This document shows, in pieces, positions 33,954 through 49,664 of a stretch of 64,000 nucleotides of DNA (positions are counted from its first letter, which is position 1; each line of letters begins with the position of its first letter). The notes beneath the pieces were generated by a model. It had not been told where the DNA came from and searched no databases. It worked only from the letters and a program-made list of their open reading frames with translations. The DNA is from a virus: the IMG/VR virus record IMGVR_UViG_3300042259_000159; one strand, written 5' to 3'. A program made the translations under genes and the position numbers.

Positions 33954-34037
33954 TGGTAGGAGAAGAGAGATTCGAACTCTCAAGGAATAATCCGTCGAGG
34001 CTTAAACTCGATGTGTTTACCATTTCACCATTCTCCC
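33954..34037 (-). tRNA. tRNA-Leu (anticodon UAA), type II, CCA encoded
   Basis: Manual fold: acceptor GGGAGAA/TTCTCCT, anticodon loop TTTAAGC, long variable arm, T-loop TTCGAAT. Confidence 0.65.
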
Positions 34038-34045
34038 GTATTTTT

Positions 34046-34067
34046 TATCTACCATTCCGCCATTCCC
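34046..34067 (-). other. orphan tRNA 5' fragment (Leu-like acceptor + D-arm)
   Basis: GCGGGAATGGCGGAATGGTAGA with no matching 3' half. Confidence 0.4.
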
Positions 34068-34076
34068 GCATTTATT

Positions 34077-34153
34077 TGGTACCCACTGTGAGATTCGAAC
34101 CCACACTAATCAGTTTCTAAGACTGATGCCTCTGCCAAGTTGGGCTATACCAG
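34077..34153 (-). tRNA. tRNA-like gene (class I, anticodon UAG) with mismatched acceptor stem; probably chimeric or disrupted
   Basis: D-arm, anticodon arm TCAGT-CTTAGAA-ACTGA and T-arm fold, but 5' ACTGGTA does not pair with 3' AGTGGGT. Confidence 0.4.
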
Positions 34154-34184
34154 TATTATGCTTATTATTTTATTTTGAAAGGCC

Positions 34185-34235
34185 ATATGTATACACATAT
34201 ATATATATACATATATATATGTATAGAGCAACCAA
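34185..34235. repeat. TA-rich microsatellite
   Basis: atatgtatacacatatatatatatacatatatatatgtatag. Confidence 0.8.
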
Positions 34236-34412
34236 AATGGTTAAATAAAAAGGTGTTTTGTGGAGACACCAAACTCCTCCAGTTTTAGTGATCTGGAAAC
34301 AATAAGCGGCGCAGGTGCTCTTTAAAACACGTGCTACCAAGCGTATAAATTGTCTAGGGGATTTCACCAAACACATTATGTTATTGGAGGGATCTTTCCC
34401 TAGACTCAGTAA

Positions 34413-34485
34413 AGCTCCTGACAGGACTTGAACCCGCAACCGGCTGATTACAAATCAGCTGCTCTGCCAGTTGAGCTACAGGAGC
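34413..34485 (-). tRNA. tRNA-Thr (anticodon UGU), CCA not encoded
   Basis: Manual fold: acceptor GCTCCTG/CAGGAGC, D-arm GCTC..GAGC, anticodon loop TTTGTAA. Confidence 0.7.
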
Positions 34486-34489
34486 AGAA

Positions 34490-34561
34490 CAGAGGGAGAA
34501 GGATTCGAACCTTCGAATGACGGGACCAAAACCCGTTGCCTTACCGCTTGGCTACCCCTCT
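34490..34561 (-). tRNA. tRNA-Gln (anticodon UUG), CCA not encoded
   Basis: Manual fold: acceptor AGAGGGG/TCCCTCT, anticodon stem ACGGG/CCCGT, loop TTTTGGT. Confidence 0.65.
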
Positions 34562-34569
34562 AAATTTTT

Positions 34570-34646
34570 TGGCTCCGGCGGCAGGATTTGAACCTACATT
34601 CGCAATGGTTAACAGCCATTTGCCTTACCAATTCGGCGACACCGGA
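34570..34646 (-). tRNA. tRNA-Asn (anticodon GUU), CCA encoded
   Basis: Manual fold: acceptor TCCGGTG/CGCCGGA, anticodon stem AATGG/CCATT, loop CTGTTAA. Confidence 0.65.
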
Positions 34647-34691
34647 ATGAACTTTTTATTTGTTATCAGCATTGTTTTGCTTTATTTTAAA

Positions 34692-34770
34692 TGGTCTCGG
34701 TGATTAGATTTGAACTAATGATTATTCCTGCTCCCAAAGCAGGTGCCATACCAAGCTAGGCGACACCGAG
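34692..34770 (-). tRNA. tRNA-Pro (anticodon UGG), CCA encoded
   Basis: Manual fold: acceptor CTCGGTG/CACCGAG perfect, anticodon stem CCTGC/GCAGG, loop TTTGGGA. Confidence 0.6.
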
Positions 34771-35251
34771 ATCAGGTGTGGTACCAAACTCCACTATGGG
34801 CAGAGGTTATAAGAAGGTCCGTACATGATATAGACAGATATTCTTCCATAACAGCGGTACGGACGCTGTCTCATTTTTATATCTTTCAGTGTGCTATTAC
34901 GCCAAAGGGAAATTAAGCCTTACCAGTTACGGGGTGCCCTTTTACTATCCACAAAGAATTTCAAATCGCGTGCATTCTAAGTATCGGAAAATTCTACAAC
35001 CACTTAAAGTACACCTCGTTTAAGAGATAGCGACCTGTGCTTCGTCCCACTCTTTAAAGGATGGCTGCCTCAAAGCCCACCTCCTGAAAAATGCATGAAG
35101 GATTATCCCTCCTTCGCTAAATACAACCTATCAATTTTAAGGGTTCTTGTCAAGAACATTTTAAGGTTTTTGAAATTTTTGTTGAACGCTGATTTGCTAC
35201 GCGGGTACAGCGTTCGAAACCTCGATAGCATCCTTGCCGTTGGCAAAGCTG

Positions 35252-35393
35252 TCAGGAGCCGCAGGAGGAGAATTGAACTCCTCTGGCATCAACACGCAGT
35301 CACCACAACTACATCTACCGTTACGGGTATGGCTCCCCATCCTAGTCACCTGTTGATACCTTATAGGTTCAGCCCTACCAAGGGCACTGCGGC
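35252..35393 (-). ncRNA. tRNA-like structured RNA (~142 nt) with 7-bp acceptor-like stem and T-arm; possible intron-containing or disrupted tRNA
   Basis: GCCGCAG ... GAGGAGTTCAATTCTCCTC CTGCGGC; body too long for a standard tRNA. Confidence 0.3.
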
Positions 35394-35399
35394 TTAAGT

Positions 35400-35620
35400 G
35401 GGTTGGTTGGTGCAGATTGTGAACGTACCCCCGCCTATAGAGGCGGAAGCTTCCTGCTTCAGCGAGAACAGCACCAGTAACTCCGAAGAGTTGTGGCGAA
35501 TTACACTCTCTCCACAGGCGTAAATTCCCGTGCGACCCACGGTACTTTATGAGTTACGCTAGGCAGATATTCGCCCAGCTTCTTCTCTAATATTTATTGC
35601 AGCGTTCTTGTCACGGTTAT
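35400..35620 (-). ncRNA. putative TnpB guide (omega) RNA region overlapping the tnpB 3' end and right end
   Basis: Position relative to tnpB; subterminal hairpin CCGCC-tataga-GGCGG at 35431-35446; no direct RNA evidence. Confidence 0.35.
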
Positions 35621-36795
35621 GATGACTGCCACACTTAAGGCAATCCCATTCCCGCACAGACAAGTCTTTGGTATCCTTGTTCTGGTAGCCACAGACATGG
35701 CATAGCTGACTGCTTGGATACCATTTGTCTATCTTGATAAGTTGCTTACCCTGCCATGCAAGTTTGTATTTCAGCATACTTGTGAACATGCTCCAGCCGT
35801 TGTCGGATATGGATTTACCAAAGTTGAACTTGCCACCCTTCTTTCGCTTCGCCATGTCCTTTACGCTAATGTCCTCTATGCCAATCACATCATAGCGGTC
35901 TGCAAGATAACGAGCTTTCTTATGCAGGAAGTCGCGGCGTTGATTAGCAATTTTCTCATGGAGTACAGCCAAACGTAGTCTTTGTTTATTCCTATTACGG
36001 CTCCCTTTTTGTCTCTTGGAGAGTTTTCTTTGTGCCTTGATCAATCTCTTTTCGGCTTCCCGTAAGAAATTTGGATAATCGGCGTTGTCCTCATCGGAAG
36101 CAACATACATCCCGTGCATAGCAAAATCCAATCCAAGAAAATTCTTCGGTATGATGGGAAGTATTTGGTTTTCATACTCCACCAAAATACTAATATAGTA
36201 TTTTCCTGACGGTGTTTTACTTATGGTTACAGTCTTTATGGTGCTATTCTCCATCAATGGACGATGCAGACACAGCTTTACCCAACCTATTTTCGGCAGC
36301 TTGACTTTGTTTCCCTCGATTCTTACAGAGCCATGTTGGTTGTTCGTAGAATATGAAGCATGACCCGCTTTCTTCGACTTGAAGCGTGGCTTGCAAAAAT
36401 GCTTCCTATTGCTCCAAAAGTTGTTATACGCCTTGTTCAGGTTTATTTGGGCATTGGCGAGAGCAAGGCTGTCAACCTCTTTCAGCCAAGGAAACTCTTT
36501 CTTGTACTGTGCAGGTGTGTTGTTCAGCCTCTCTCCTGTTTCCTTATAGTGATCAAGACGATCTCCAAGCATCTTGTTATAGATGAATCTGGCACTGCCG
36601 AAAGTCTTGGCAAACATAATCTTCTGTTCAATTGTCGGGTAGAGTCTATATCGGTATGCCTTATTCACTATAATCACCTGCCTTGATTTTCTATGTATTT
36701 ACGAATTGTCTCAAACGGAGCAATTATCTGGCTCAACTACTTACGTAAATTCGCTAGACACACCTTCATCCCCCACCTTAGAGGTGGAGGGCTTC
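35425..36795 (-). mobile_element. IS200/IS605-family element, TnpB-only (IS1341-like)
   Basis: tnpB ORF flanked by similar subterminal hairpins at 36773-36787 and 35431-35446; no tnpA seen. Confidence 0.7.
35559..36677 (-). CDS. tnpB: TnpB (IS200/IS605 OrfB, RuvC-like RNA-guided nuclease)
   Basis: N-terminal YRYRLYPT; C-terminal zinc finger CHVCG...CLKCG; 372 aa. Confidence 0.85.
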   Translation of the reverse strand: MIIVNKAYRYRLYPTIEQKIMFAKTFGSARFIYNKMLGDRLDHYKETGERLNNTPAQYKKEFPWLKEVDSLALANAQINLNKAYNNFWSNRKHFCKPRFKSKKAGHASYSTNNQHGSVRIEGNKVKLPKIGWVKLCLHRPLMENSTIKTVTISKTPSGKYYISILVEYENQILPIIPKNFLGLDFAMHGMYVASDEDNADYPNFLREAEKRLIKAQRKLSKRQKGSRNRNKQRLRLAVLHEKIANQRRDFLHKKARYLADRYDVIGIEDISVKDMAKRKKGGKFNFGKSISDNGWSMFTSMLKYKLAWQGKQLIKIDKWYPSSQLCHVCGYQNKDTKDLSVREWDCLKCGSHHNRDKNAAINIREEAGRISA

Positions 36796-36799
36796 TGGC

Positions 36800-36843
36800 G
36801 GGTTAGGTTAAATCCCTTGTGTCTACTAATTCCACCAATCGGG
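36800..36843 (-). other. partial tRNA-Leu-like 5' fragment next to the IS left end
   Basis: GCCCGATTGGTGGAATTAGTAGACAC duplicates the 5' end of tRNA-Leu at 36940 but lacks a foldable remainder. Confidence 0.4.
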
Positions 36844-36853
36844 CTAAAATCTT

Positions 36854-36940
36854 TGGTGCCCAATGCAGGACTCGAACCTGCACGCCATTTCAGGCAGGAG
36901 GGCTTAAACCTCGTGTGTCTACCAATTCCACCAATCGGGC
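36854..36940 (-). tRNA. tRNA-Leu (anticodon UAA), type II, CCA encoded
   Basis: Manual fold: acceptor GCCCGAT/ATTGGGC, anticodon loop TTTAAGC, long variable arm. Confidence 0.6.
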
Positions 36941-36949
36941 TAAAATCTT

Positions 36950-37033
36950 TGGTGCCTCAGACAGGATTCGAACCTGCACGGATCTCTCCACTTGGTCCTA
37001 AGCCAAGCGTGTCTGCCATTCCACCACTGAGGC
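36950..37033 (-). tRNA. tRNA-Leu (anticodon UAG), type II, CCA encoded
   Basis: Manual fold: acceptor GCCTCAG/CTGAGGC perfect, anticodon stem CTTGG/CCAAG, loop CTTAGGA. Confidence 0.65.
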
Positions 37034-39544: not shown

Positions 39545-40254
39545 TTAGATAGTAAACAGTTTTTCAACACCTTTCTTGCTTCCCGTGTTCTTTGTCAGGC
39601 TGCTTACAATTTCTTTTTTCCAAATGCAAGTAAAATCTTCTGGAGCATTATATTCTGAAACAAACACCTTATGTCCCTCATTAGCCTTATCTCTGCACCA
39701 CTGCCAAAACAACTCATGGTCAAAATCATTAGAGTACTTTGTTGTCCCTGAATAGGGCGGATCACAGTAGATTAAGCTGTTACTGGGGATATGTAGCTCA
39801 TCATAAGGACAACACAAAAATTCTACATTTTGAATTAGCGAGGACTGTTTTATTGCTGATTGCTTACTACGTTTTGTTTGTATTATCATGTTTTCAATAT
39901 CACCTTTTGTTCCTGCTTTGTCCCGCCTATACCCCCCAAAAAATTTACCACCAAAAGACATTGAAAATGCTGTAAATCCAGTTAAACCATCAATATTTTT
40001 GTGTTTTTTCATTGAATTGTACATATCTTCTGTAATAATTTCAGGAATACTTTTTGGTGCATCGCGTATAAGTTTTAATGCTTCTATTACATACGGGCTG
40101 CAATGGCGGCCCCAATACGATTCCCATCAACCTTATCAATCATGTTTCCACCTCCAACAAACGGTTCAACCCACCACTGGTCAGGTTTTCTTTCTGCAAG
40201 CATAATTGGGAGGATATACTTTGCTATTCTGTTTTTACTTCCCATGTATTTCAT
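39545..40254 (-). pseudogene. dam: Dam-like DNA adenine methyltransferase, frameshifted
   Basis: N-terminal part (MKYMGSKNRIA...EPFVGGG) ends at TAA 40091-40093; C-terminal part with IYCDPPY continues in another frame; frames overlap over a CCC run. Confidence 0.65.
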
Positions 40255-40329
40255 ACTTACCTCCTGTTTTTGTTTTAGTTGTAAGGTGCTTTTACCTGTC
40301 AATATCAAACTACCCCTATTCCCCCTGTT

Positions 40330-40470
40330 TGTCAATACCTTATTCTTATCTAAACATAAGATATATATATTATATATATATTCTTTATATAATATAAATA
40401 TATATACTTTATATATAGTATATTTATATAATATATATATGTATATAATATATATACTCCTACTCACTAC
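40330..40470. repeat. TA-rich low-complexity repeat upstream of dam
   Basis: atatatattatatatatattctttatataatataaatatatatac... Confidence 0.8.
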
Positions 40471-40603
40471 GAGACACATACATAATATATACATTAACCC
40501 TTCCTGCAAAGGAAGCCGTAGGATACCATAAAAAAGAGATTTTGTCAAGCATTATTTTAAGAAATGTTAAAAATAATTTCCTAACCTAATCTCTATTTTT
40601 TAC

Positions 40604-41050: not shown

Positions 41051-41371
41051 ATGGCTAGGCCGAAAGGTACAACAAAAGAGGTTCTTATGAACAGGAAGCT
41101 TCTTGCACAACTAGACATTATCAAAGAGAAGGTGTCTGATGATGTTGTAGAGGCTTATGAAACACTGGCCTTCTTGATGAGGGATAAGGCATCCTCTTCA
41201 AGTGTAAGAAAGGGTTCAGCGGAACAAATCATTGGTCTCCACAAATCTTTTTGCAAGGAAGCAAGCGGTGATGTTGAGGATGTAGAGGAGGTAATGGAAG
41301 ACGGTAGGACTTCTGGCGGGGGTATGGGTAAAATACTCAGCCTGAAAATGGTAGGAGGAGGCAATGACTAA
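41051..41371 (+). CDS. putative terminase small subunit
   Basis: Immediately upstream of and overlapping terL exon 1; ACAGGAGG RBS. Confidence 0.4.
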   Translation: MARPKGTTKEVLMNRKLLAQLDIIKEKVSDDVVEAYETLAFLMRDKASSSSVRKGSAEQIIGLHKSFCKEASGDVEDVEEVMEDGRTSGGGMGKILSLKMVGGGND

Positions 41372-41438
41372 ACTCGCACCTGCATCAAGAAAGCAAGAAA
41401 TGATGCTGGGTGCTGATGCCCAAATGACGGTAATTGGT
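41364..41438 (+). CDS. terL: terminase large subunit, exon 1
   Basis: MTKLAPASRKQEMMLGADAQMTVIG, then a stop in the intron; joins to exon 2 to give VIGGAAGSGKS. Confidence 0.6.
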
Positions 41439-41922
41439 AGATAACTGCCCTGTACACAGGAAACTGTGTATGTGTATCTCATTAAAACGGGGAACCCTAA
41501 GTGTACACGCATAAGGGAATCCCGTGACTACGCAAGCCGAAAAAGGAGTAGGCATGAAAAATTTAGGATTTATGGGTTTTGATAAGTGTGCGGATATGTT
41601 CTGACCTAGAGAAGGGTTTTTCATGCTCTTCTACTGTAAGGAGGAATAAGGTTGGAACAAGCACGGTACATAGGATCTATAGAAGAAAAACGCATACTTC
41701 CATATCTAAGAATTTTTCTTGGGAGTAGTTGTAACGACTAGTTCATAAGAACGTAAGACACAAGTAGTCCTTAAGTGCAAGGACAAGGTGTTTGAAACAT
41801 GAGACACTCTAACAAGTAATGTTGAGGGTGAAGAGATAGTCTGAACTGTATAGAAATATACAGCAGGAGAACATTTTAATGTTTTTCCGGCAGATGCCTT
41901 ACGAACATCTGTGAACATTTTG
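41439..41922 (+). other. group I intron 1 in terL (no ORF)
   Basis: R-like gtaacgactagtt at 41731 and S-like gaagagatagtctgaact at 41830; ends in G; boundaries +/-3 nt. Confidence 0.6.
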
Positions 41923-42199
41923 GGTGCCGCAGGTTCGGGAAAGTCATACATAATGAATATGATACCTTTGAGGTATGTCGATTGCCCCAACTTTAGGGGG
42001 ATTGTCTTCCGAAGGGAAACGACACAGCTTACAGGTGAAGGGGGGATGTGGGATACAGCAACGGAGATATACTCTGAGCTGCCTAAAAATATCAGGCCCA
42101 AAATATTGAAACATAACCTGAGAATGATTTTTCCGAATGGGGCAAAAATTAAGTTTTCACACATGGAAAATGATAATGATTTCAGGAAACATCAAGGGT
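41923..42199 (+). CDS. terL: terminase large subunit, exon 2 (Walker A)
   Basis: GAAGSGKSY ... FSHMENDNDFRKHQG. Confidence 0.65.
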
Positions 42200-42453
42200 T
42201 AATTAGTAGCCCCTTGTGTTGGTGACAGCGCAAGCAAACTAACCTAATTCGGTGGAAGCCCAAACATGTAGGATGTGGGTGATACCGAGCAAGCCACGGC
42301 GTGTGTAACGACTAGTTCTTAGGAACGTAGGCCCAAGCGGGTCGAAACGGTTAGCATCTTATTAAGATGAAGATATAGTCTACTCTGCATGGAAACATGC
42401 AGCGGACACTTTATGTGTCGGGCAGATGTTAGCGCCATCTGTTGAATATTATG
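42200..42453 (+). other. group I intron 2 in terL
   Basis: R gtgtgtaacgactagttcttagg at 42301; S gaagatatagtctactctgcatggaaacatgcag at 42369. Confidence 0.6.
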
Positions 42454-42562
42454 TACAATATACCCTGATATGCTTTGATGAGGCAACACATTTCACTTTC
42501 CAACAAGTTGAATACTTAATGTCACGTATGAGAAGTAAAAGTAAGTATGCTTCTCGTATGGT
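42454..42562 (+). CDS. terL: terminase large subunit, exon 3 (Walker B)
   Basis: QYTLICFDEATHFTFQQVEYLMSRMRSKSKYASRM. Confidence 0.6.
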
Positions 42563-42846
42563 TCTGTCGTGGATTACGCGACATGTATGGCGAAAGCTGT
42601 ACTGGCAACTGTGTGAACTCAGGGAAACCTTAGCTGCTGCAATTGGGCAGAGGAAGAAGGCAATCCTGAGCGAAGCCTTCCCACCGGGAAGGAACGTGCA
42701 ACGACCATCGAAAGCGTAACACCTGTTACAGTGAGTAGAGTACACCACACATGTGTGGTGGAAGCGCACAGCCCCTAACATGTAACGATGAGGGTGAAGA
42801 TATGGTCTGAACCTACAGAAATGTAGAAAAAGGTAAACAAATACAG
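42563..42846 (+). other. group I intron 3 in terL
   Basis: Shared 48-bp motif caatcctgagcgaagccttcccaccgggaaggaacgtgcaacgaccatc; S-like gaagatatggtctgaacc at 42796. Confidence 0.55.
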
Positions 42847-43162
42847 GATAATCGGTAACCCAGATCCTGATAGTTGGCTTTTGCCTATGGTAGAGTGGTA
42901 CTTAGATGAACAAGGATACCCCGACCAGTCTAAAGATGGGGTTGTAAGATGGTTCATTAGAAAGAATGGTGAGTTTATCTGGAGGGATACAGAAGAAGAA
43001 ATCTATAGAGATTTTGGAACAGGCCCGTCTATACGCCCTGTATCCTTTACATTCATCTCTGCAAATATCTATGATAACCCTATTATGATAGAGACCAATC
43101 CAGACTATCTTGCAATGCTTGAAGGCCTCAACGAGGTTGATAAGGCAAGATTACTACGCGGT
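42847..43162 (+). CDS. terL: terminase large subunit, exon 4
   Basis: IIGNPDPDSWLLPMVEWYLDEQGYPD...; the NP motif is only in frame once intron 3 is removed. Confidence 0.6.
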
Positions 43163-43444
43163 TAACAGTGGCCGCATATAGTAGTGATATTATATGAAAA
43201 ATTGTGTGAATTCAGGGGACACCTAAACAGGCAACGCTTTGTGCTGTAGGCAATCCTGAGCGAAGCCTTCCCACCGGGAAGGAACGTGCAACGACCATCC
43301 TGAGTAGGAGTAGGGCCAAGCGGTTCCGAAGCGCACAACATCTCATTGAGATGATGATATGGTCTGATCTATATGGAAACATATAGCTGACACGGTGTAT
43401 ATTACGTGTCGGGCACGTCTTAGCGAGACGTGCTGAACAAAATG
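43163..43444 (+). other. group I intron 4 in terL
   Basis: Same 48-bp motif at 43250; S-like gatgatatggtctgatctatatggaaacatatag at 43371; 3' end ...ctgaacaaaatg. Confidence 0.55.
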
Positions 43445-44167
43445 AACTGGTATGCTAGACCACAGGATAGTGGATACTTTAAAAGAGATTGGCTGCAACG
43501 TTGTGTTGAGGCACCTACTGATACAAAGTGGGTACGTGCTTGGGATAAAGCAGCTACAGAGCCGAGTGACACAAACCCCTCTCCTGACTATACAGCTTGT
43601 ATAAAGATGGGGAAAGATAGAGCAGGAAACTACTACATTGCTGGCGATTTTGTGGAAGAAAACTATGATGAAGACAGCAAGACATATGGCAGGTTCAGGA
43701 AAAGAGCAGGTGCAAGAGATAATATCATCTTGAAACAGGCACTTGCTGATGGCCATGATTGTGAGGTTGTTCTTCCTCAAGACCCCGCTGCTGCGGGTAA
43801 GACGGAATACATTGAATCAGCAAAGAAATTAATAGAGCAAGGTATCCGTTGCAGAAAGGATGTGGTTGCATCTAACAAATCTAAGCTAATAAAGTTTTCA
43901 CCGTTTTCTGCATCATGCGAGAATGGGCTTGTTTACATCTTGGATGCAACATTTACCCAAAAAACATTGAATGCATTTTATACAGAGCTTGAATCTTTCA
44001 ACGGAGAAGCAAGCACAAGAACACGAAAGGATGATTGGGTTGACTGCACAGCAATGGCATTCAACTACCTATCTAAAAAAAGTGTACTTCCCAATTTTAC
44101 ACTAGATGAGTGGGGAGGTACATCGGTAAAAACACCCCTCTCAATTGTGAGGGCCAACTTTCATTAA
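43445..44167 (+). CDS. terL: terminase large subunit, exon 5 (nuclease domain)
   Basis: WVRAWDKAAT...DYTACIKMGKDRAGNYYIAGDFV; the five exons total 1500 nt (500 codons). Confidence 0.65.
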   Translation, partial: NWYARPQDSGYFKRDWLQRCVEAPTDTKWVRAWDKAATEPSDTNPSPDYTACIKMGKDRAGNYYIAGDFVEENYDEDSKTYGRFRKRAGARDNIILKQALADGHDCEVVLPQDPAAAGKTEYIESAKKLIEQGIRCRKDVVASNKSKLIKFSPFSASCENGLVYILDATFTQKTLNAFYTELESFNGEASTRTRKDDWVDCTAMAFNYLSKKSVLPNFTLDEWGGTSVKTPLSIVRANFH

Positions 44168-44178
44168 GGAGGGCACTG

Positions 44179-44885
44179 GTGGTAAAAGAGGGCAGCAAGT
44201 CTGCTACAAAAACAACCACTTCTAAGAAATTCAACCTATCTGAAAAAGGGTATATAGGACTTAATCAGGTAAATGGCCGCATTTATGAGGAAAGTCGTGA
44301 TGCTTTAAGGTTCCCTAATGCGACAAAGACCTTTAAAAAGATGTCCTATGACCCTGTAATATCCGCTGCAAATTCCACAATAGATCTTATGATAGGTCGT
44401 GTGCAGTGGTTCTTCGATGTTCCTGATACAGCCAGTGATAAGGCAAAAGAAGCAGCAGAATTTTTAAATTACTGTATGAACAGCATGGATATGGGAACAT
44501 GGGAAGATTTCATTACTGAGTGTGGTAGCTATAGACGTTACGGCTTTCACATAGCGGAAAAAGTCTACAACAAGGTTAAAGAAGGGAAGTGGAAGGGAAA
44601 GTATAAGTGGAAAAAACTACCAACAAGAGCACAAGACACCATTGAAGAGTGGGTCTTTAGTAAGGATAACAGGGAGCTTTTAGGCTTAAAACAGTCAACA
44701 AGAAATGTGACACACCCACTGGCATTAAAGAGCCTTACAGGCTATATAGAAATACCAAGGTCAAAATTCATACATTTTGCCTACGATGGGTATAGAGATA
44801 ACCCAGAGGGAAGAAGCCCGTTAGTTGGTGCCTACATCCCTTGGACATATAAAACACTCATAGAGGAATATGAGGCTGTCGGCGT
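44179..44885 (+). CDS. portal protein, exon 1
   Basis: GTG start 6 nt after AAGGAGG; portal-sized product after splicing. Confidence 0.55.
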
Positions 44886-45826
44886 TAATTATAGCGCCTT
44901 TATGTATTGATACATAAAGCAAACTCCCTTAATTCAGGGGAAGCCCTAACGTTGAGACGAGGGTAATCCTGAGCGAAGCCTTCCCAACGGGAAGGAACGT
45001 GCAACGACTAATAAGTCAAATAAACAACACATTAGTGTATGGAGAGTATTTTATGAAAACTTCAAAAGAAATTAGGAACCTTGTCATTGCTATGCTGTTT
45101 GGAGACGGCACATTGAATGCTAAAGGTTATTTGAGCATGCGTCACTGCATAGCGCAAAAAGACTATATAGATTGGAAACGAAAACTTCTAGTAAGTGGTA
45201 TATCTATGACTGACTGTTATTATGTTAGTAATAACGGGTATGGTGCATATGAAGTTAGAAGTAGAGTTTACAAATTTATGAAGCAATATCGTAAGGTAAT
45301 TTATGGTAGTGGTAGAAAAAACATTACAGACCGTAGAATCCTGAATAAGCTCACGCCGCTTGGTTTATCCATATGGTATATGGATGATGGCGGGTTATCT
45401 CAGAAGAAAAACAAGGATGGTGAAGTAGTAGCAAACGAGCTGATACTTAACACATATCTTAGTAGAGAAGACAACCAGAAGATTATTGATTACTTCAATG
45501 AAGTTTGGGGTATAAGATTTACTCAGGTAAAGAATAGAGGTCTTTATCGTCTCCGTTGCGGTACAGCGGAGGCTAGGAAATTTATAGAAATCGTAAAGCC
45601 ATATGTCTCCCAAGTACCGAGTATGGCACACAAAATGAAGTTAAAAGTAAAATAGTCTGACTATCGAACACACGTAATTTTTACGGAAGTTAGTAGAGTA
45701 GAACCAAGTGGTTCGAAACGGGGAGGTTCTTAGAAATAAGAACATGATATAGTCTGGTCTGCATGGAGACATGCAGGAGTTCATAAGAGAACCGGAGAAG
45801 ATTAACGACCTTTTCTGAACACAACG
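44886..45826 (+). other. group I intron in portal gene carrying a LAGLIDADG homing endonuclease ORF
   Basis: 48-bp shared motif at 44960; S element gatatagtctggtctgcatggagacatgcagg at 45746; 3' end ...ctgaacacaacg. Confidence 0.6.
44999..45655 (+). CDS. LAGLIDADG homing endonuclease (intron-encoded)
   Basis: LVIAMLFGDGTL and LSIWYMDDGG motifs; probable start at ATG 45053. Confidence 0.7.
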   Translation: MQRLISQINNTLVYGEYFMKTSKEIRNLVIAMLFGDGTLNAKGYLSMRHCIAQKDYIDWKRKLLVSGISMTDCYYVSNNGYGAYEVRSRVYKFMKQYRKVIYGSGRKNITDRRILNKLTPLGLSIWYMDDGGLSQKKNKDGEVVANELILNTYLSREDNQKIIDYFNEVWGIRFTQVKNRGLYRLRCGTAEARKFIEIVKPYVSQVPSMAHKMKLKVK

Positions 45827-46070
45827 AGCTAAAGACCTTGGGGGTATTCCTCTTATAGGTGTGGATGTTGATTACCTTGCTAAAGCACAGGAGAACCCTG
45901 CATCAGCAGAAGCCGCTGTTGTAGAGGCACTGAAGCGTGATGCAGCAAATATGCATTCAGGTGATCAATCCTACATGCTCCTTCCTCTTGCTTACACACA
46001 GGATGGGGGGAAACCACTCTTTGATTTTAAACTTGTTGGAGTGGACGGTGGTTTGCAAATAAGCCACGGT
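45827..46070 (+). CDS. portal protein, exon 2
   Basis: In-frame continuation (V)AKDLGGIPLIGVDVDYLAKAQ...ISHG. Confidence 0.5.
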
Positions 46071-46401
46071 AGATGGAAACATCTATAAAAATAAACCTAT
46101 CTAATTGCTGGGAAGTCTTGTTAGGCTTAATGTACAATACAGAGTGGTGACACTCTGCGATACTGTAAAAATCATTAAGATAGAGATAATCAGCAGCCAA
46201 GCTTAAGCCTCCAGACAGATAAAGGAGGAGGCTTTTGAAGGTTCAACGACTAGTTCTTAGGAACGTAGGCCCAAGCGGGTCCAAACGGTAGGGTTCCTCC
46301 AGTGCGGCTGAGGAATAAGATATAGTCTAGTCTGTATGGAGACATACAGGTGCAGGTAAAGCTGCCGGAAAGGTCTAGCGAGCCTTTTTGAATACTAAAC
46401 G
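46071..46401 (+). other. group I intron 2 in portal gene (no ORF)
   Basis: R ggttcaacgactagttcttaggaacg at 46241; S gaataagatatagtctagtctgtatggagacatacagg at 46313. Confidence 0.6.
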
Positions 46402-46941
46402 GGAAAGCAATATAATACTGATGATATTATAAAAAGAAAGCAGAATGAAATATTAATCTTGTATCTTGCTGATGTTTTAAAGCTTGGTACAGATACGCAC
46501 GGCAGTTTTGCGCTTGCTGATAGCAAGAATGCTTTACTCGGCTTTGCTATTGACCGCCATTTGAAGTTTATAGCTCAAACATTAAAAAGAGATTTGGTTG
46601 TACAAACCCTGAACATAAATGGTTTCGATCTCGATAAAAGCGAAATTCCCACTCTCCAACACACAGAGCTTGACAGTGTAGATATAGATGTCTTTTCTAA
46701 GTTTATCCAGCGTGTTGCTGCTGTTGGATACCTGCCGCGAACACCGGAGCTTATCAACGAGGTTCTCAAGAAGGGGGACTTCAAATATCGTATAGATGAA
46801 GAGATGAGTAACGAGGAGTTTGATAAACTCTTTCCTGAGGCTGTTTCAAGATCGGGTGATGGGATGAAGAGTGCAGGAGAAGGAACGTCAAACAAGGTGG
46901 GTGGTGCAGATAACAGTACGTCAAACAAGGAGAACGCTTAA
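46402..46941 (+). CDS. portal protein, exon 3
   Basis: Open frame from the intron 3' G; three exons total 1491 nt (497 codons). Confidence 0.55.
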   Translation, partial: GKQYNTDDIIKRKQNEILILYLADVLKLGTDTHGSFALADSKNALLGFAIDRHLKFIAQTLKRDLVVQTLNINGFDLDKSEIPTLQHTELDSVDIDVFSKFIQRVAAVGYLPRTPELINEVLKKGDFKYRIDEEMSNEEFDKLFPEAVSRSGDGMKSAGEGTSNKVGGADNSTSNKENA

Positions 46942-48228
46942 ATGGGGAATATAAATAGGGTACTAAGCTATTTTGAAAACAAACCTCAGCTTATTGAGCC
47001 TAAAACAGCGAGTACCATTCTTGAATTTCTTGAACTAAGAAACAGTAAAGGTTTTGAGGCAGGTAAAAACAAGCCTGAAGCCTTCACCAAGAAGCACTTC
47101 GATTACAAAAAGAATGTCGAGGGTAAGAGGGTATCCAAGAAAACAGCAATAATGAATATTGAGGGACCTCTTACATATAAAAAGACAGGGTGGGAGGCCC
47201 TTTGTGGAGGATGCTCTTATCAGGCAATCCATGAAGGTGTTGCACAGGCCATTGAGGACGGCATTGAACACATTGTTATGAATGTTGATAGTGGTGGGGG
47301 GGAGGCCTACGGTGTTTTTGAAACAGCCGAAGAAATAAGGAAAATGTGTGATGATGGAGGTGTTAAGCTAACAGCCTACGTTGACGGCTTGTCTGCATCT
47401 GCCGCATATGCACTTTCCTGTGTTTGTGATGAGGTTGTTGCAAACAATTATGCTGAAGTGGGTTCTATCGGTGTTGTAACTCGGCTTGTGAATAGTACAG
47501 AAGCACAAGAAAAGGCGGGGTATAAAACAACATATATCTATGCAGGCGGAAACAAAATTCCCTATGACACAGACGGAGGTTTTAGGGATGAGTTTTTGAA
47601 AGATATACAGGCAAAAGTGGACAATCTTTACGATGCCTTTGTTTCCCATGTAGCTGAAGCAAGAGGTATGGATGAAGAAAGTGTGAGAAACACAGATGCT
47701 AAAGTTTTTACAGCAGTAGAAGCAAAAGAGAAGGGGTTGGTGGATAAGATTATGTCTAAGGATGAATTTTTGAATTACATAATGGAGGAAGACGGAATGA
47801 GTGCAAAAAAGCAAGGGGAAACCCCTGTGGCTGAAGCAGAAGAGCAGAAGAAGGTGGAGATGGCTGATACCGGTATCGACGCAAAAGCTATCAAAGAACT
47901 TATGGCCCAGAATGAACAGCTTCGCAAGATGAATGCTGAATTTTCTGAGAAACTAAATAAGCTTGAAGAGCAGAAGAAGGCAGAATATAAGCAAATGGTG
48001 CAGGATGCTGTTAATGGTTATAGCTTCCTAACCGAAGAAAGCAAGGTAGGGCTTACATCCTTCTTGATGTCTAATAATGATGCTGTCTGTGTTATTAATG
48101 CCCTTAATGAGGCGAGCAATGCGCTGGCTGCTGCCGTAGAGGAAGAAAAAGGTCACGGTGCCGAATCTAGCACCACAGGCCCAGAAGATGCCATGACCGC
48201 TGCCCTTAAAAACGTACTGAAGAAGTAA
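46942..48228 (+). CDS. prohead protease (ClpP/S49-like) with C-terminal scaffold-like coiled-coil domain
   Basis: Ser-protease-like GGGEAYG...GLSASAAYAL region, charged helical C-terminus; position between portal and capsid. Confidence 0.6.
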   Translation: MGNINRVLSYFENKPQLIEPKTASTILEFLELRNSKGFEAGKNKPEAFTKKHFDYKKNVEGKRVSKKTAIMNIEGPLTYKKTGWEALCGGCSYQAIHEGVAQAIEDGIEHIVMNVDSGGGEAYGVFETAEEIRKMCDDGGVKLTAYVDGLSASAAYALSCVCDEVVANNYAEVGSIGVVTRLVNSTEAQEKAGYKTTYIYAGGNKIPYDTDGGFRDEFLKDIQAKVDNLYDAFVSHVAEARGMDEESVRNTDAKVFTAVEAKEKGLVDKIMSKDEFLNYIMEEDGMSAKKQGETPVAEAEEQKKVEMADTGIDAKAIKELMAQNEQLRKMNAEFSEKLNKLEEQKKAEYKQMVQDAVNGYSFLTEESKVGLTSFLMSNNDAVCVINALNEASNALAAAVEEEKGHGAESSTTGPEDAMTAALKNVLKK

Positions 48229-48238
48229 GGAGATATAA

Positions 48239-48598
48239 ATGACTAAAGTTGCAACAACAAATGCTTTTGTTACCGATGTTGTAAAGAAAGAACTTTGGAT
48301 GGAAGAAAAGTGGTGCCGTGAGGCAGGTACTGTTACGGTTGTTGATGGTATGGATGTTGGGCAGGTTCTTGAGAAATCTGGTGATACTTGGGCCGCCATT
48401 GCAGCCGACCCCATAGGGCAGGTAGGTATTCTTGTGGATGAAACTGTCGTTGAAAAAGACGCAGGAGACCACACCCTTGCCGTCCTTGTTAGTGGTCCCG
48501 CTATTGTTTTTGCCGGTGCACTAACCCTTGGAGGAACAGCCACTGAAGCTGCCGTTATTACAGCACTTGAAACCGCAGGTATCCGCGTAGATAAATAA
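48239..48598 (+). CDS. putative head decoration protein
   Basis: Small Gly/Ala/Val-rich protein directly upstream of the major capsid gene. Confidence 0.4.
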   Translation: MTKVATTNAFVTDVVKKELWMEEKWCREAGTVTVVDGMDVGQVLEKSGDTWAAIAADPIGQVGILVDETVVEKDAGDHTLAVLVSGPAIVFAGALTLGGTATEAAVITALETAGIRVDK

Positions 48599-48608
48599 GG
48601 AGATTTAG

Positions 48609-49664
48609 ATGGCCGTAAGAGATTATAACAACTACAATAGAATTATTGACCGCACCGAGATGGTGCAACTTATCCCCAATCAGGCAGGCTATATCAACGA
48701 TTCTGGCCTGTTTGAAGGCGAAGGTGTTGCTACAGAAACTGTAATTTTTGACCGTGAAGAAACCACTTTTAGTCTTCTTCCCACTGTAAACCGCAGAGGT
48801 GGTGCACCGACAAAGCGTAAAGAGGATAGAGCAGACACTTTTGCACTTGTTCTCCCCTACTTCCAGACCACAGACCTTATTACAGGCTCTGATGTTCAGG
48901 GCCGGAGAATGGTTGGAACAGATGCAGACCCTGAAACTGTTGCTAACGTTATGGCTAAGAAGATGCGTAGGATGCGTCTTGAGGCGGATCAGACGAACGA
49001 ATACATGAAGCTACAGGCACTGAAGGGTAAAACTGTTGCACCGGATGGTACTGTTATCGCTGATATGTTTACCAAGTTTAATCTTGACCCTGCTGATTAT
49101 ACTTTTAACTTTAAGCTTGATGACGCCACTACCGATGTTGATGTAAAGGTGGCCGAGTTTAAACGTGCCTTTGTTCGCAGCGCAAAAACAGGGCGTATGG
49201 GGGCAATCAATGCCTTGGTTAGCCCTGAGTTCTTTGATAAGCTTACCTCGCATGAGAAGGTACAGGAAGCGTACAAATACTATGCTGCAAATGTGAACCC
49301 GATGCGTGATGATATGCAGCGTATGACTGCATACGGCATTGTGGATGTCTTTGATTACAAGGGTGTTCGTTTTATGACCTACGACATTGACTTCCCTATG
49401 CCCGATGGCACAACTCAGGCCGCATTTGATTCTGATACAGCATTGGAGGGTGGTAGGACATTTGTTACCGGCCTTCCTGAGGTTTACCGTACCGTATGGG
49501 GTCCTGCCAATACGCTTGAAGGTGCAAACCAGATTGGACAGGAAATGTTCATGTATCAGTATACCGACCCCAAAGGAAAGTTTATTGAGCTTGAACTTGA
49601 AATGGCTCCTCTGCACTGGATGAACCATCCGCAGCTTTCTTGGAACCTTGTTTCCACTCCTTAA
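48609..49664 (+). CDS. major capsid protein (lambda gpE-like)
   Basis: 351 aa; position and size; resemblance to the phage capsid E family by recall. Confidence 0.65.
   Translation: MAVRDYNNYNRIIDRTEMVQLIPNQAGYINDSGLFEGEGVATETVIFDREETTFSLLPTVNRRGGAPTKRKEDRADTFALVLPYFQTTDLITGSDVQGRRMVGTDADPETVANVMAKKMRRMRLEADQTNEYMKLQALKGKTVAPDGTVIADMFTKFNLDPADYTFNFKLDDATTDVDVKVAEFKRAFVRSAKTGRMGAINALVSPEFFDKLTSHEKVQEAYKYYAANVNPMRDDMQRMTAYGIVDVFDYKGVRFMTYDIDFPMPDGTTQAAFDSDTALEGGRTFVTGLPEVYRTVWGPANTLEGANQIGQEMFMYQYTDPKGKFIELELEMAPLHWMNHPQLSWNLVSTP

Follow-up and report, generated by a model that had tools for sequence, protein, structure and literature searches.

The td, nrdB and sunY-type introns of phage T4 (subgroup IA2) carry P7.1 and P7.2 between P7 and P3' as well as P9.1/P9.2 extensions, and their endonuclease open reading frames (ORFs) loop out of a peripheral helix, which in td is P6. 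Landthaler and Shub are said to have described in 1999 three group I introns within one gene, orf142, of the Staphylococcus phage Twort, for which exon skipping is possible. In the large terminase gene, terL, a single intron is known from Lactobacillus phage LL-H and two from Bacillus phage Moonbeam (PMC4299906), whilst Shewanella phage KASIA harbours one confirmed by reverse transcription PCR (PMC8541194) and Twort-like staphylococcal phages also harbour one (PMC5618024). In the Pectobacterium phages phiTE and CB7 an HNH gene separates two pieces of terL, and in the Jug phages, which have 18.5 introns for each genome of 360-400 kb, terL is in two to three pieces (PMC12880540). Here we describe the adjacent terL and portal genes of an uncultivated virus, IMG/VR record IMGVR_UViG_3300042259_000159, of which one strand of 64,000 nucleotides (nt) was analysed (hereafter the window). 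Four group I introns, I1 to I4, are predicted to split terL and another two, I5 and I6, to split the portal gene, all removed by conventional self-splicing of a late pre-mRNA, a reading to which we assign a probability of roughly 0.93. It is carried by matches to group I structure, by exact restoration of the reading frames, by one insertion site found naturally empty and by exons under purifying selection.

As in the terL genes listed above, the introns occupy conserved sites of terL, though the known terL introns often contain an endonuclease ORF, whereas here four lie in terL, two in the portal gene, and only one of the six carries such an ORF. The T4 introns lie in nucleotide-metabolism genes, one in each gene, rather than several per gene in terL and portal. 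Twort orf142 likewise has several related group I introns in one phage protein-coding gene; it is a different gene in a different host, with three introns against the four of this terL, where splicing is predicted. The exons and candidate introns of the window are as follows.

41364..41438, plus strand: terL exon 1, 75 nt, 25 amino acids, MTKLAPASRKQEMMLGADAQMTVIG, with the ribosome-binding site GGAGG upstream
41439..41922, plus strand: putative group I intron I1, 484 nt, in Walker A (IG/GAAGSGKS; here and below a slash within a sequence marks the insertion point)
41923..42199, plus strand: terL exon 2, 277 nt, Walker A GAAGSGKS
42200..42453, plus strand: putative group I intron I2, 254 nt
42454..42570, plus strand: terL exon 3, 117 nt, Walker B LICFDEAT
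42571..42854, plus strand: putative group I intron I3, 284 nt
42855..43162, plus strand: terL exon 4, 308 nt
43163..43444, plus strand: putative group I intron I4, 282 nt
43445..44167, plus strand: terL exon 5, 723 nt, RNase H-like nuclease domain, Pfam Terminase_6C, stop codon 44165-44167
44179..44885, plus strand: portal exon 1, 707 nt, GTG start after the ribosome-binding site AAGGAGG, Pfam Portal_Mu
44886..45826, plus strand: putative group I intron I5, 941 nt, carrying a LAGLIDADG ORF
45053..45655, plus strand: LAGLIDADG homing endonuclease ORF, 200 amino acids, between P7 and P7.2 of I5
45827..46052, plus strand: portal exon 2, 226 nt, joined to exon 1 in a protein (P0123) of a second haplotype, B, described below
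46053..46401, plus strand: putative group I intron I6, 349 nt, without an ORF in this haplotype
46402..46941, plus strand: portal exon 3, 540 nt, stop codon 46939-46941, Pfam Portal_Mu

Along 41364-46941 of the plus strand, coding-like pieces alternate with stop-rich segments, and no single ORF covers either the terminase or the portal protein, as a preliminary description made from the sequence had stated. Exon boundaries were set jointly from uninterrupted homologues, from the rule that the exon ends in U and the intron in G, and from P1 and P10 pairing. Joining the five terL exons yields exactly the 1500 nt that had been proposed earlier, encoding 499 amino acids. The spliced portal gene comprises 1473 nt and 490 amino acids from the GTG at 44179, which is also the start in the JGI gene call of P0123, and its product has the length of the homologue P0122. 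The 1491 nt previously given for the portal gene did not hold up, in that the codon 18 nt upstream is TCA and no valid start codon or stop-free extension of an exon reproduced this length. The spread of the conserved terminase motifs over five pieces was borne out, except that the piece with NPDPDSW begins at 42855 and had been placed 8 nt early, at 42847.

The spliced TerL is a full-length T4-type protein with a Walker A/B ATPase and an RNase H-like nuclease, matching Pfam Terminase_6N and Terminase_6C (E = 3e-27 and 4e-10), whilst the spliced portal protein is of the Mu type (PF06074), with full-length Portal_Mu homology and Pfam matches on exons 1 and 3. When 5.8 billion proteins were searched, no full-length near-identical TerL was retrieved; the best uninterrupted homologue (P0001, 497 amino acids) shared 64% identity at 99% coverage, and the best uninterrupted portal homologues (P0121 and P0122, 485 and 490 amino acids) shared 66-67% over 97-100% of the length of the spliced portal protein. 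Alignment of the spliced proteins with intron-less homologues, the comparison that the preliminary description had called for, was gapless across all six junctions at 49-67% identity, and every junction sits within a block of invariant residues. Even the short exon 1 of terL matches the N-termini of uninterrupted homologues, including the invariant S8, Q11 and L15.

Junction J1 (VIG/GAAGSGKS) falls within Walker A and restores the invariant GGAAGSGKS, whereas J2 (HQG-L-QYT) lies just upstream of Walker B and splits a Leu codon (T/TA). The Cys codon split at J3 (SRMVLS-C-NPDPD; T/GT) restores the invariant C157, and J4 (LLRG/NWYARP) marks the start of the nuclease domain. In the portal gene, J5 (EEYEAVG-V-AKDLGG) splits a Val codon (GT/A) and J6 reads GVDGG/GKQYNTDD. 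The predicted spliced sequences at the six junctions are listed here.

J1: ACGGTAATTGGT joined to GGTGCCGCAGGT
J2: AACATCAAGGGT joined to TACAATATACCC
J3: GGTTCTGTCGT joined to GTAACCCAGATC
J4: TTACTACGCGGT joined to AACTGGTATGCT
J5: GGCTGTCGGCGT joined to AGCTAAAGACCT
J6: GTGGACGGTGGT joined to GGAAAGCAATAT

Two other placements were considered and rejected. An alternative J3 (SRMV/IIGNPDPD; 5' site 42562/42563, 3' site 42846/42847) is in frame and of equal length, but gives IIG where all ten homologues have I, A or G, then S or T, then C or T (S or T followed by C in nine of ten), and it offers no exon-guide pairing, whereas the chosen J3 at 42570/42855 has a 6-base-pair (bp) exon-guide P1 (7 bp in total) and a 4-bp P10. 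With J1 at 41435/41923, only one of the two invariant glycines of GGAAGSGKS is kept, and 41438/41923 restores the other.

The Rfam covariance model RF00028 (Intron_gpI; gathering score 50 bits) was run against the whole 64-kb window. Five segments exceeded the threshold, with matches at 42190-42402 (I2, 76.1 bits), 42559-42828 (I3, 77.5 bits), 43153-43386 (I4, 95.9 bits), 44876-45191 (the 5' half of I5, 51.5 bits) and 46043-46349 (I6, 93 bits), at E = 3.6e-10 to 1.8e-23 over the window. The detached 3' piece of I5 (45744-45774) was found at 21 bits in a permissive scan, which revealed no introns beyond these six in the 64 kb. The match in I1 (41706-41863) reached 39.2 bits (E = 1.7e-6) and aligned its 3' half only; the alignment breaks because of an ORF-less insert of 193 nt in the P6 loop. 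The suggestion that all six intervening segments are of the group I type, for which such a covariance-model search had been proposed, was thus upheld by five segments at 51.5-96 bits and, for the sixth, at 39 bits, by helices verified by hand. The R-like and S-like elements that had been noticed recur in six of six segments, with small variants.

Features at the splice sites were consistent throughout, in agreement with the earlier statement that each intron follows an exon T and ends in G, which holds in all six cases under the boundaries that fit the homologues. In every intron the exon U is paired with a guide G in P1 (U41438.G41447, U42199.G42209, U42570.G42578, U43162.G43171, U44885.G44894 and U46052.G46063), and a terminal (omega) G is found at 41922, 42453, 42854, 43444, 45826 and 46401. 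P10 comprises 3 bp in I1, 3 bp in I2 (UAC/GUA) and 4 bp in each of I3 and I4. All seven positions pair in P1 of I3 (UGUCGUG/CGCGACA) and all four in its P10 (GUAA/UUAC), as do all five in P1 of I4 (GCGGU/GCCGC) and all four in its P10 (ACUG/CAGU). The conserved P3-P9 core, including P7, was present in the covariance-model alignments of I2, I3, I4 and I6 and in script-checked helices of I1 and I5. The hand-laid helices of I1 (P1, P10, P2-P9, P7.1, P7.2, P9.1 and P9.2) were 100% paired by script, P2 being 9 bp with a GAAA loop, and P1-P9 across the 5' and 3' halves of I5 also paired correctly. Excision of the segments leaves a continuous, conserved frame.

The RF00028 matches end at P9, 28-59 nt short of the true 3' splice sites. 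Beyond P9, five introns (I1, I2, I4, I5 and I6) have two more hairpins, P9.1 and P9.2, of which the second has covarying stems (CAGAUG/CAUCUG, GCACGUC/GACGUGC, AAAGG/CCUUU and AGAAG/CUUUUCU) and a conserved loop resembling U(U or A)(A or G)CGA. The same extension was seen in introns of a distant relative, L007 (1729-1779, 2296-2390 and 4543-4588), and of Vibrio phage F100 (L006, 6042-6085). Since the Rfam group I model does not contain it, intron 3' ends are under-called by 40-60 nt. P7.1/P7.2, located by hand in I1 and I5 and assigned to all six introns, and P9.1/P9.2, assigned to five, are as in phage subgroup IA introns, a subgroup to which the six may belong. I1 further shares the look of P3-J3/4-P4 and the P6 insert with T4 td/nrdB/sunY (IA2). 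From P8 through J8/7 and P7 to P9 it is similar to group I introns from phages of Staphylococcus, Shewanella, Vibrio and Clostridium, of which one bears the annotation Intron_gpI.

Under self-splicing, a late pre-mRNA would be transcribed through the whole terL-portal block and each intron would fold into its ribozyme core. Guanosine would attack after the exon U that is paired with the internal guide sequence G in P1, and the freed exon 3'-OH would then attack after the terminal G, joining the exons into the 1500-nt terL frame (499 amino acids) and the 1473-nt portal frame (490 amino acids). In-frame stop codons occur 4, 24, 147, 1, 23 and 34 nt into I1 to I6, respectively; at these stops, which lie within 1-34 nt in five introns and at 147 nt in I3, ribosomes would leave the RNA ahead of the ribozyme core. 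These stops also bear on a protein-level account, in which the segments would be removed as inteins or skipped by ribosomes, or the pieces would act as separate polypeptides. Some TerL homologues do have inteins near Walker A, but an intein would have to be read through, and here each 5' junction is followed by an in-frame stop within 1-147 nt. Moreover, three codons (Leu, Cys and Val) are split across junctions, which is explained only by RNA splicing, exons 1 and 3 of terL amount to just 25 and 39 codons, and the segments match an RNA structure model and no protein domain. The sequence already contradicts such an account, to which we attach next to no likelihood.

Comparison with related metagenomic contigs revealed two co-circulating haplotypes. 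Two contigs from other metagenomes, L002 (100%) and L003 (99.9%), reproduce the window sequence (haplotype A), whilst three metagenome contigs (L001, L004 and L005) represent haplotype B and are approximately 97.5% identical to it. The source metagenomes bear the JGI identifiers 3300042267, 3300042268, 3300036466, 3300043039 and 3300043122. Haplotype B does not possess I5: the alignment gap coincides exactly with 44886-45826, and the sequence reads through as GAG GCT GTT GGT GTG GCC AAA. This natural intron-less allele defines I5 to the base. In addition, I6 of haplotype B contains a 227-amino acid HNH_3 ORF in its P6 loop, I1 is missing 107 nt (41564-41670) inside its P6 loop, and I2 shows no differences at all. 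Of the exon differences between the haplotypes, 53 are synonymous and 8 non-synonymous, and none creates a stop (33 and 8 in terL, 20 and 0 in the portal gene); terL exon 1 has one synonymous and one conservative change. Even the short exons therefore encode protein in the frames predicted. Where the introns differ, the changes lie in loops or leave pairing intact, as in the P7.2 hairpin of I6, which is GGCCC..GGGUC in the window and GGCCAG..CUGGCC in haplotype B.

These comparisons weigh heavily against the view that the pieces are what is left of packaging genes decaying within a defective element, or arose by mis-assembly, so that no intact TerL or portal protein would exist. Such a view draws on the want of a continuous ORF and on the fact that all the sequences are metagenomic assemblies. 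However, every exon is under purifying selection at the ratio of 53 to 8 given above, the frame is restored exactly at six junctions, the neighbouring late genes (protease, decoration protein and capsid) are intact, and at least five metagenomes gave this structure in independent assemblies. We therefore consider decay or mis-assembly very improbable.

Several observations count against self-splicing of all six introns, or against their present mobility. Splicing is deduced wholly from sequence, and an exact search for the spliced J2 sequence among JGI metagenome contigs returned no matches, so that this collection yielded neither a spliced transcript nor an allele without I2, a result that is uninformative rather than negative. 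P10 was not evident for I5 and I6, and in this haplotype all six introns but one lack an endonuclease gene. I1 scored below the gathering threshold, and its exon-guide pairing in P1 is limited to 3 bp. The main residual doubt accordingly concerns efficient, unaided splicing of I1, given its short P1, large P6 insert and sub-threshold score.

It is conceivable, though unlikely, that the other five introns self-splice and that I1 (41439-41922) has decayed or depends on a cofactor, splicing poorly or not at all; TerL levels would then be low, or translation would begin further downstream, for instance at GTG 41911, and omit the first 25 residues. The score of 39.2 bits against 50, the 3-bp pairing and the 193-nt ORF-less insert, in which the 107-nt indel between haplotypes lies, speak for this possibility. 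Yet all core helices of I1 pair perfectly and its stem changes between haplotypes keep pairing, exon 1 encodes the invariant S8, Q11 and L15 and is conserved between haplotypes, J1 restores the invariant GGAAGSGKS, and terL is an essential gene whose arrangement is kept in six independent contigs. Self-splicing of all six introns, I1 included, remains the reading we prefer.

In keeping with that reading, the introns may be regarded as mobile selfish elements at the most conserved sites of TerL and the portal protein, and we propose that they sit at invariant sites because of homing endonucleases. The ORF at 45053-45655 within I5 matches Pfam LAGLIDADG_2 (PF03161) at E = 1.8e-26 and 93.6 bits against a cut-off of 25, over profile positions 3-168 of 168, and its translation contains two LAGLIDADG motifs, LFGDGTL and YMDDGG. 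I5 therefore carries an intact LAGLIDADG homing endonuclease gene, the product of which is predicted to be active. Each haplotype has an endonuclease that is missing from the other: haplotype A has the LAGLIDADG type in I5, haplotype B the HNH type in I6, and 1.2 kb of the portal gene separates the two. At the empty I5 site of haplotype B, four synonymous differences fall within 12 nt.

I5 target: haplotype B site, GCTGTTGGTGTGGCCAAAGAC; precisely spliced haplotype A site, GCTGTCGGCGTAGCTAAAGAC

The intron-bearing alleles, those of the window and of the distant L007, share GTCGGCGT/AGC at this site. The clustering of differences there would be compatible with co-conversion in the course of homing or with a target site that is resistant.

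Haplotype divergence, measured between the window and L004, forms a mosaic: a 430-nt tract with I2 at its centre (42115-42544) is identical, and divergence is approximately 0.4% over some 2 kb from I6 (46300-48300), compared with 2-5% elsewhere. These tracts could reflect co-conversion around mobile introns. As proof of recent homing they were discounted, since a comparable clean tract in the capsid gene (48858-49357) means that those at I2 and I6 are not diagnostic and are merely suggestive.

The introns also share near-identical modules with one another, outside which they diverge. I3 and I4 have 52 nt in common at 100% identity (42658-42709 and 43248-43299), of which I5 holds a 44-nt copy at 97.7% identity (44965-45008); the motif shared by three introns in the preliminary description is thus real, with these lengths in place of its 48 bp. 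A separate module of 45 nt is shared by I2 and I6 at 97.8% identity (42307-42351 and 46245-46289). In haplotype B, the I3 copy of the I3/I4 module has four changes and the I4 copy one. Such modules suggest gene conversion between introns inside one genome.

A whole-region megablast against 50,697 phage records matched nothing but a 97-nt stretch of intron, and hence no close cultured relative. The phage is read as an uncultivated myovirus distantly related to the rV5/Vequintavirinae group, its TerL being approximately 50% identical to those of Erwinia, Cronobacter and Pectobacterium phages. Introns occupy the I2 and I5 sites in L007, the TerL of which is approximately 66% identical; the one at the I5 site contains no ORF. 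In L007 the I3, I4 and I6 sites are free of introns, and an intron of another type lies 3 nt from the I1 site. In another contig, L008, an intron lies just upstream of a terL piece beginning near the exon 3 boundary.

Cultured Vibrio crassostreae phages (the F100 and 184E37 group; OZ195714 and MW824372) have an intron with an HNH ORF at the I6 portal site, where FKGIEG/GK... corresponds to VGVDGG/GKQY... here. The 3' sequence of this intron is approximately 82% identical to I6 over 97 nt and its HNH protein 41% identical to that of haplotype B, whereas the portal protein is only distantly related and the I6 copy in the window has no HNH ORF. In Vibrio phage F100 (L006; OZ195714.1, 4042-6635) and 18 related Vibrio phage records the portal gene is split among coding sequences for a hypothetical protein, an HNH endonuclease and a portal protein, and the intron is unannotated.

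Five TerL homologues of 790-869 amino acids (P0008, P0011, P0041, P0057 and P0067) contain insertions of approximately 340-370 amino acids with LAGLIDADG_3 (PF14528), consistent with inteins. The intein-like insertion is at the Walker A loop (GSGK/S, query residue 32/33), 6-7 codons from I1. Together with I1 and the nearby intron of L007, this suggests that three kinds of selfish element target the same P-loop.

The core motif common to I3, I4 and I5 (AATCCTGAGCGAA...AACGTGCAACGAC) was found in at least 120 IMG/VR contigs and 16 GTDB contigs, and approximately 25 of the loci fetched have it within a terL or portal homologue. Introns of this family are common across viral contigs. In one such contig, from another uncultivated phage (L020/L021; IMGVR_UViG_2706795985_000001, 90.5 kb), two group I introns occur in terL and one in the portal gene, at the site equivalent to I5, with one further intron elsewhere. 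Seven copies of the core motif were also noted over five contigs (L128, L130, L131, L134 and L143) of the Neomarinimicrobiota metagenome-assembled genome bin JAOZRH01, with four Rfam group I matches on two contigs, two of them within approximately 400 nt on L131. These contigs are probably a mis-binned, intron-rich phage.

The preliminary description had called the intron density unusually high, and the literature located supports this, giving no more than three introns per phage gene (reportedly in Twort orf142) and no more than two per terL, compared with four in the terL described here. Four terL and two portal introns in 5.6 kb represent the extreme of a known phenomenon and not a new kind of system.

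Several features of the surrounding region were also recorded. Upstream of the packaging module, a cluster of eight tRNAs lies on the minus strand (33957-37033), and a similar cluster is present in L004 of haplotype B. A D12-class N6-adenine DNA methyltransferase on the minus strand (39545-40251) is split over two frames; its N-terminal 54 amino acids stop near 40087, and the Pfam profile is matched at positions 1-41 and 122-197. No intron signal was found at this break, which has the appearance of a frameshift, whether genuine or introduced during assembly. The leftward and rightward gene blocks are separated by an intergenic stretch (40290-40500) that is AT-rich and of low complexity; it is the part most divergent from haplotype B, with 20 differences per 200 nt.

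Group I introns in terL are already known, and what is new is this unusually dense case. Annotation pipelines would report such a phage as having no intact terminase or portal gene, and recognition of the introns recovers two hallmark genes used in phage classification. Four similar ribozymes in one terL transcript provide a natural test case for how exon skipping is avoided, and haplotypes approximately 97.5% identical with different intron and endonuclease content offer a field example of homing-element turnover. Six insertion points in invariant motifs, with inteins at the same Walker A loop, illustrate convergence of selfish elements on conserved targets. More tentatively, and we would not yet favour it, the lineage may be in the midst of intron proliferation and of reciprocal endonuclease-mediated interference between competing genotypes, the endonuclease-less introns having been spread or homogenised in the genome by recombination or reverse splicing. 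Were this so, terL would be the most intron-dense phage protein-coding gene among the descriptions found.

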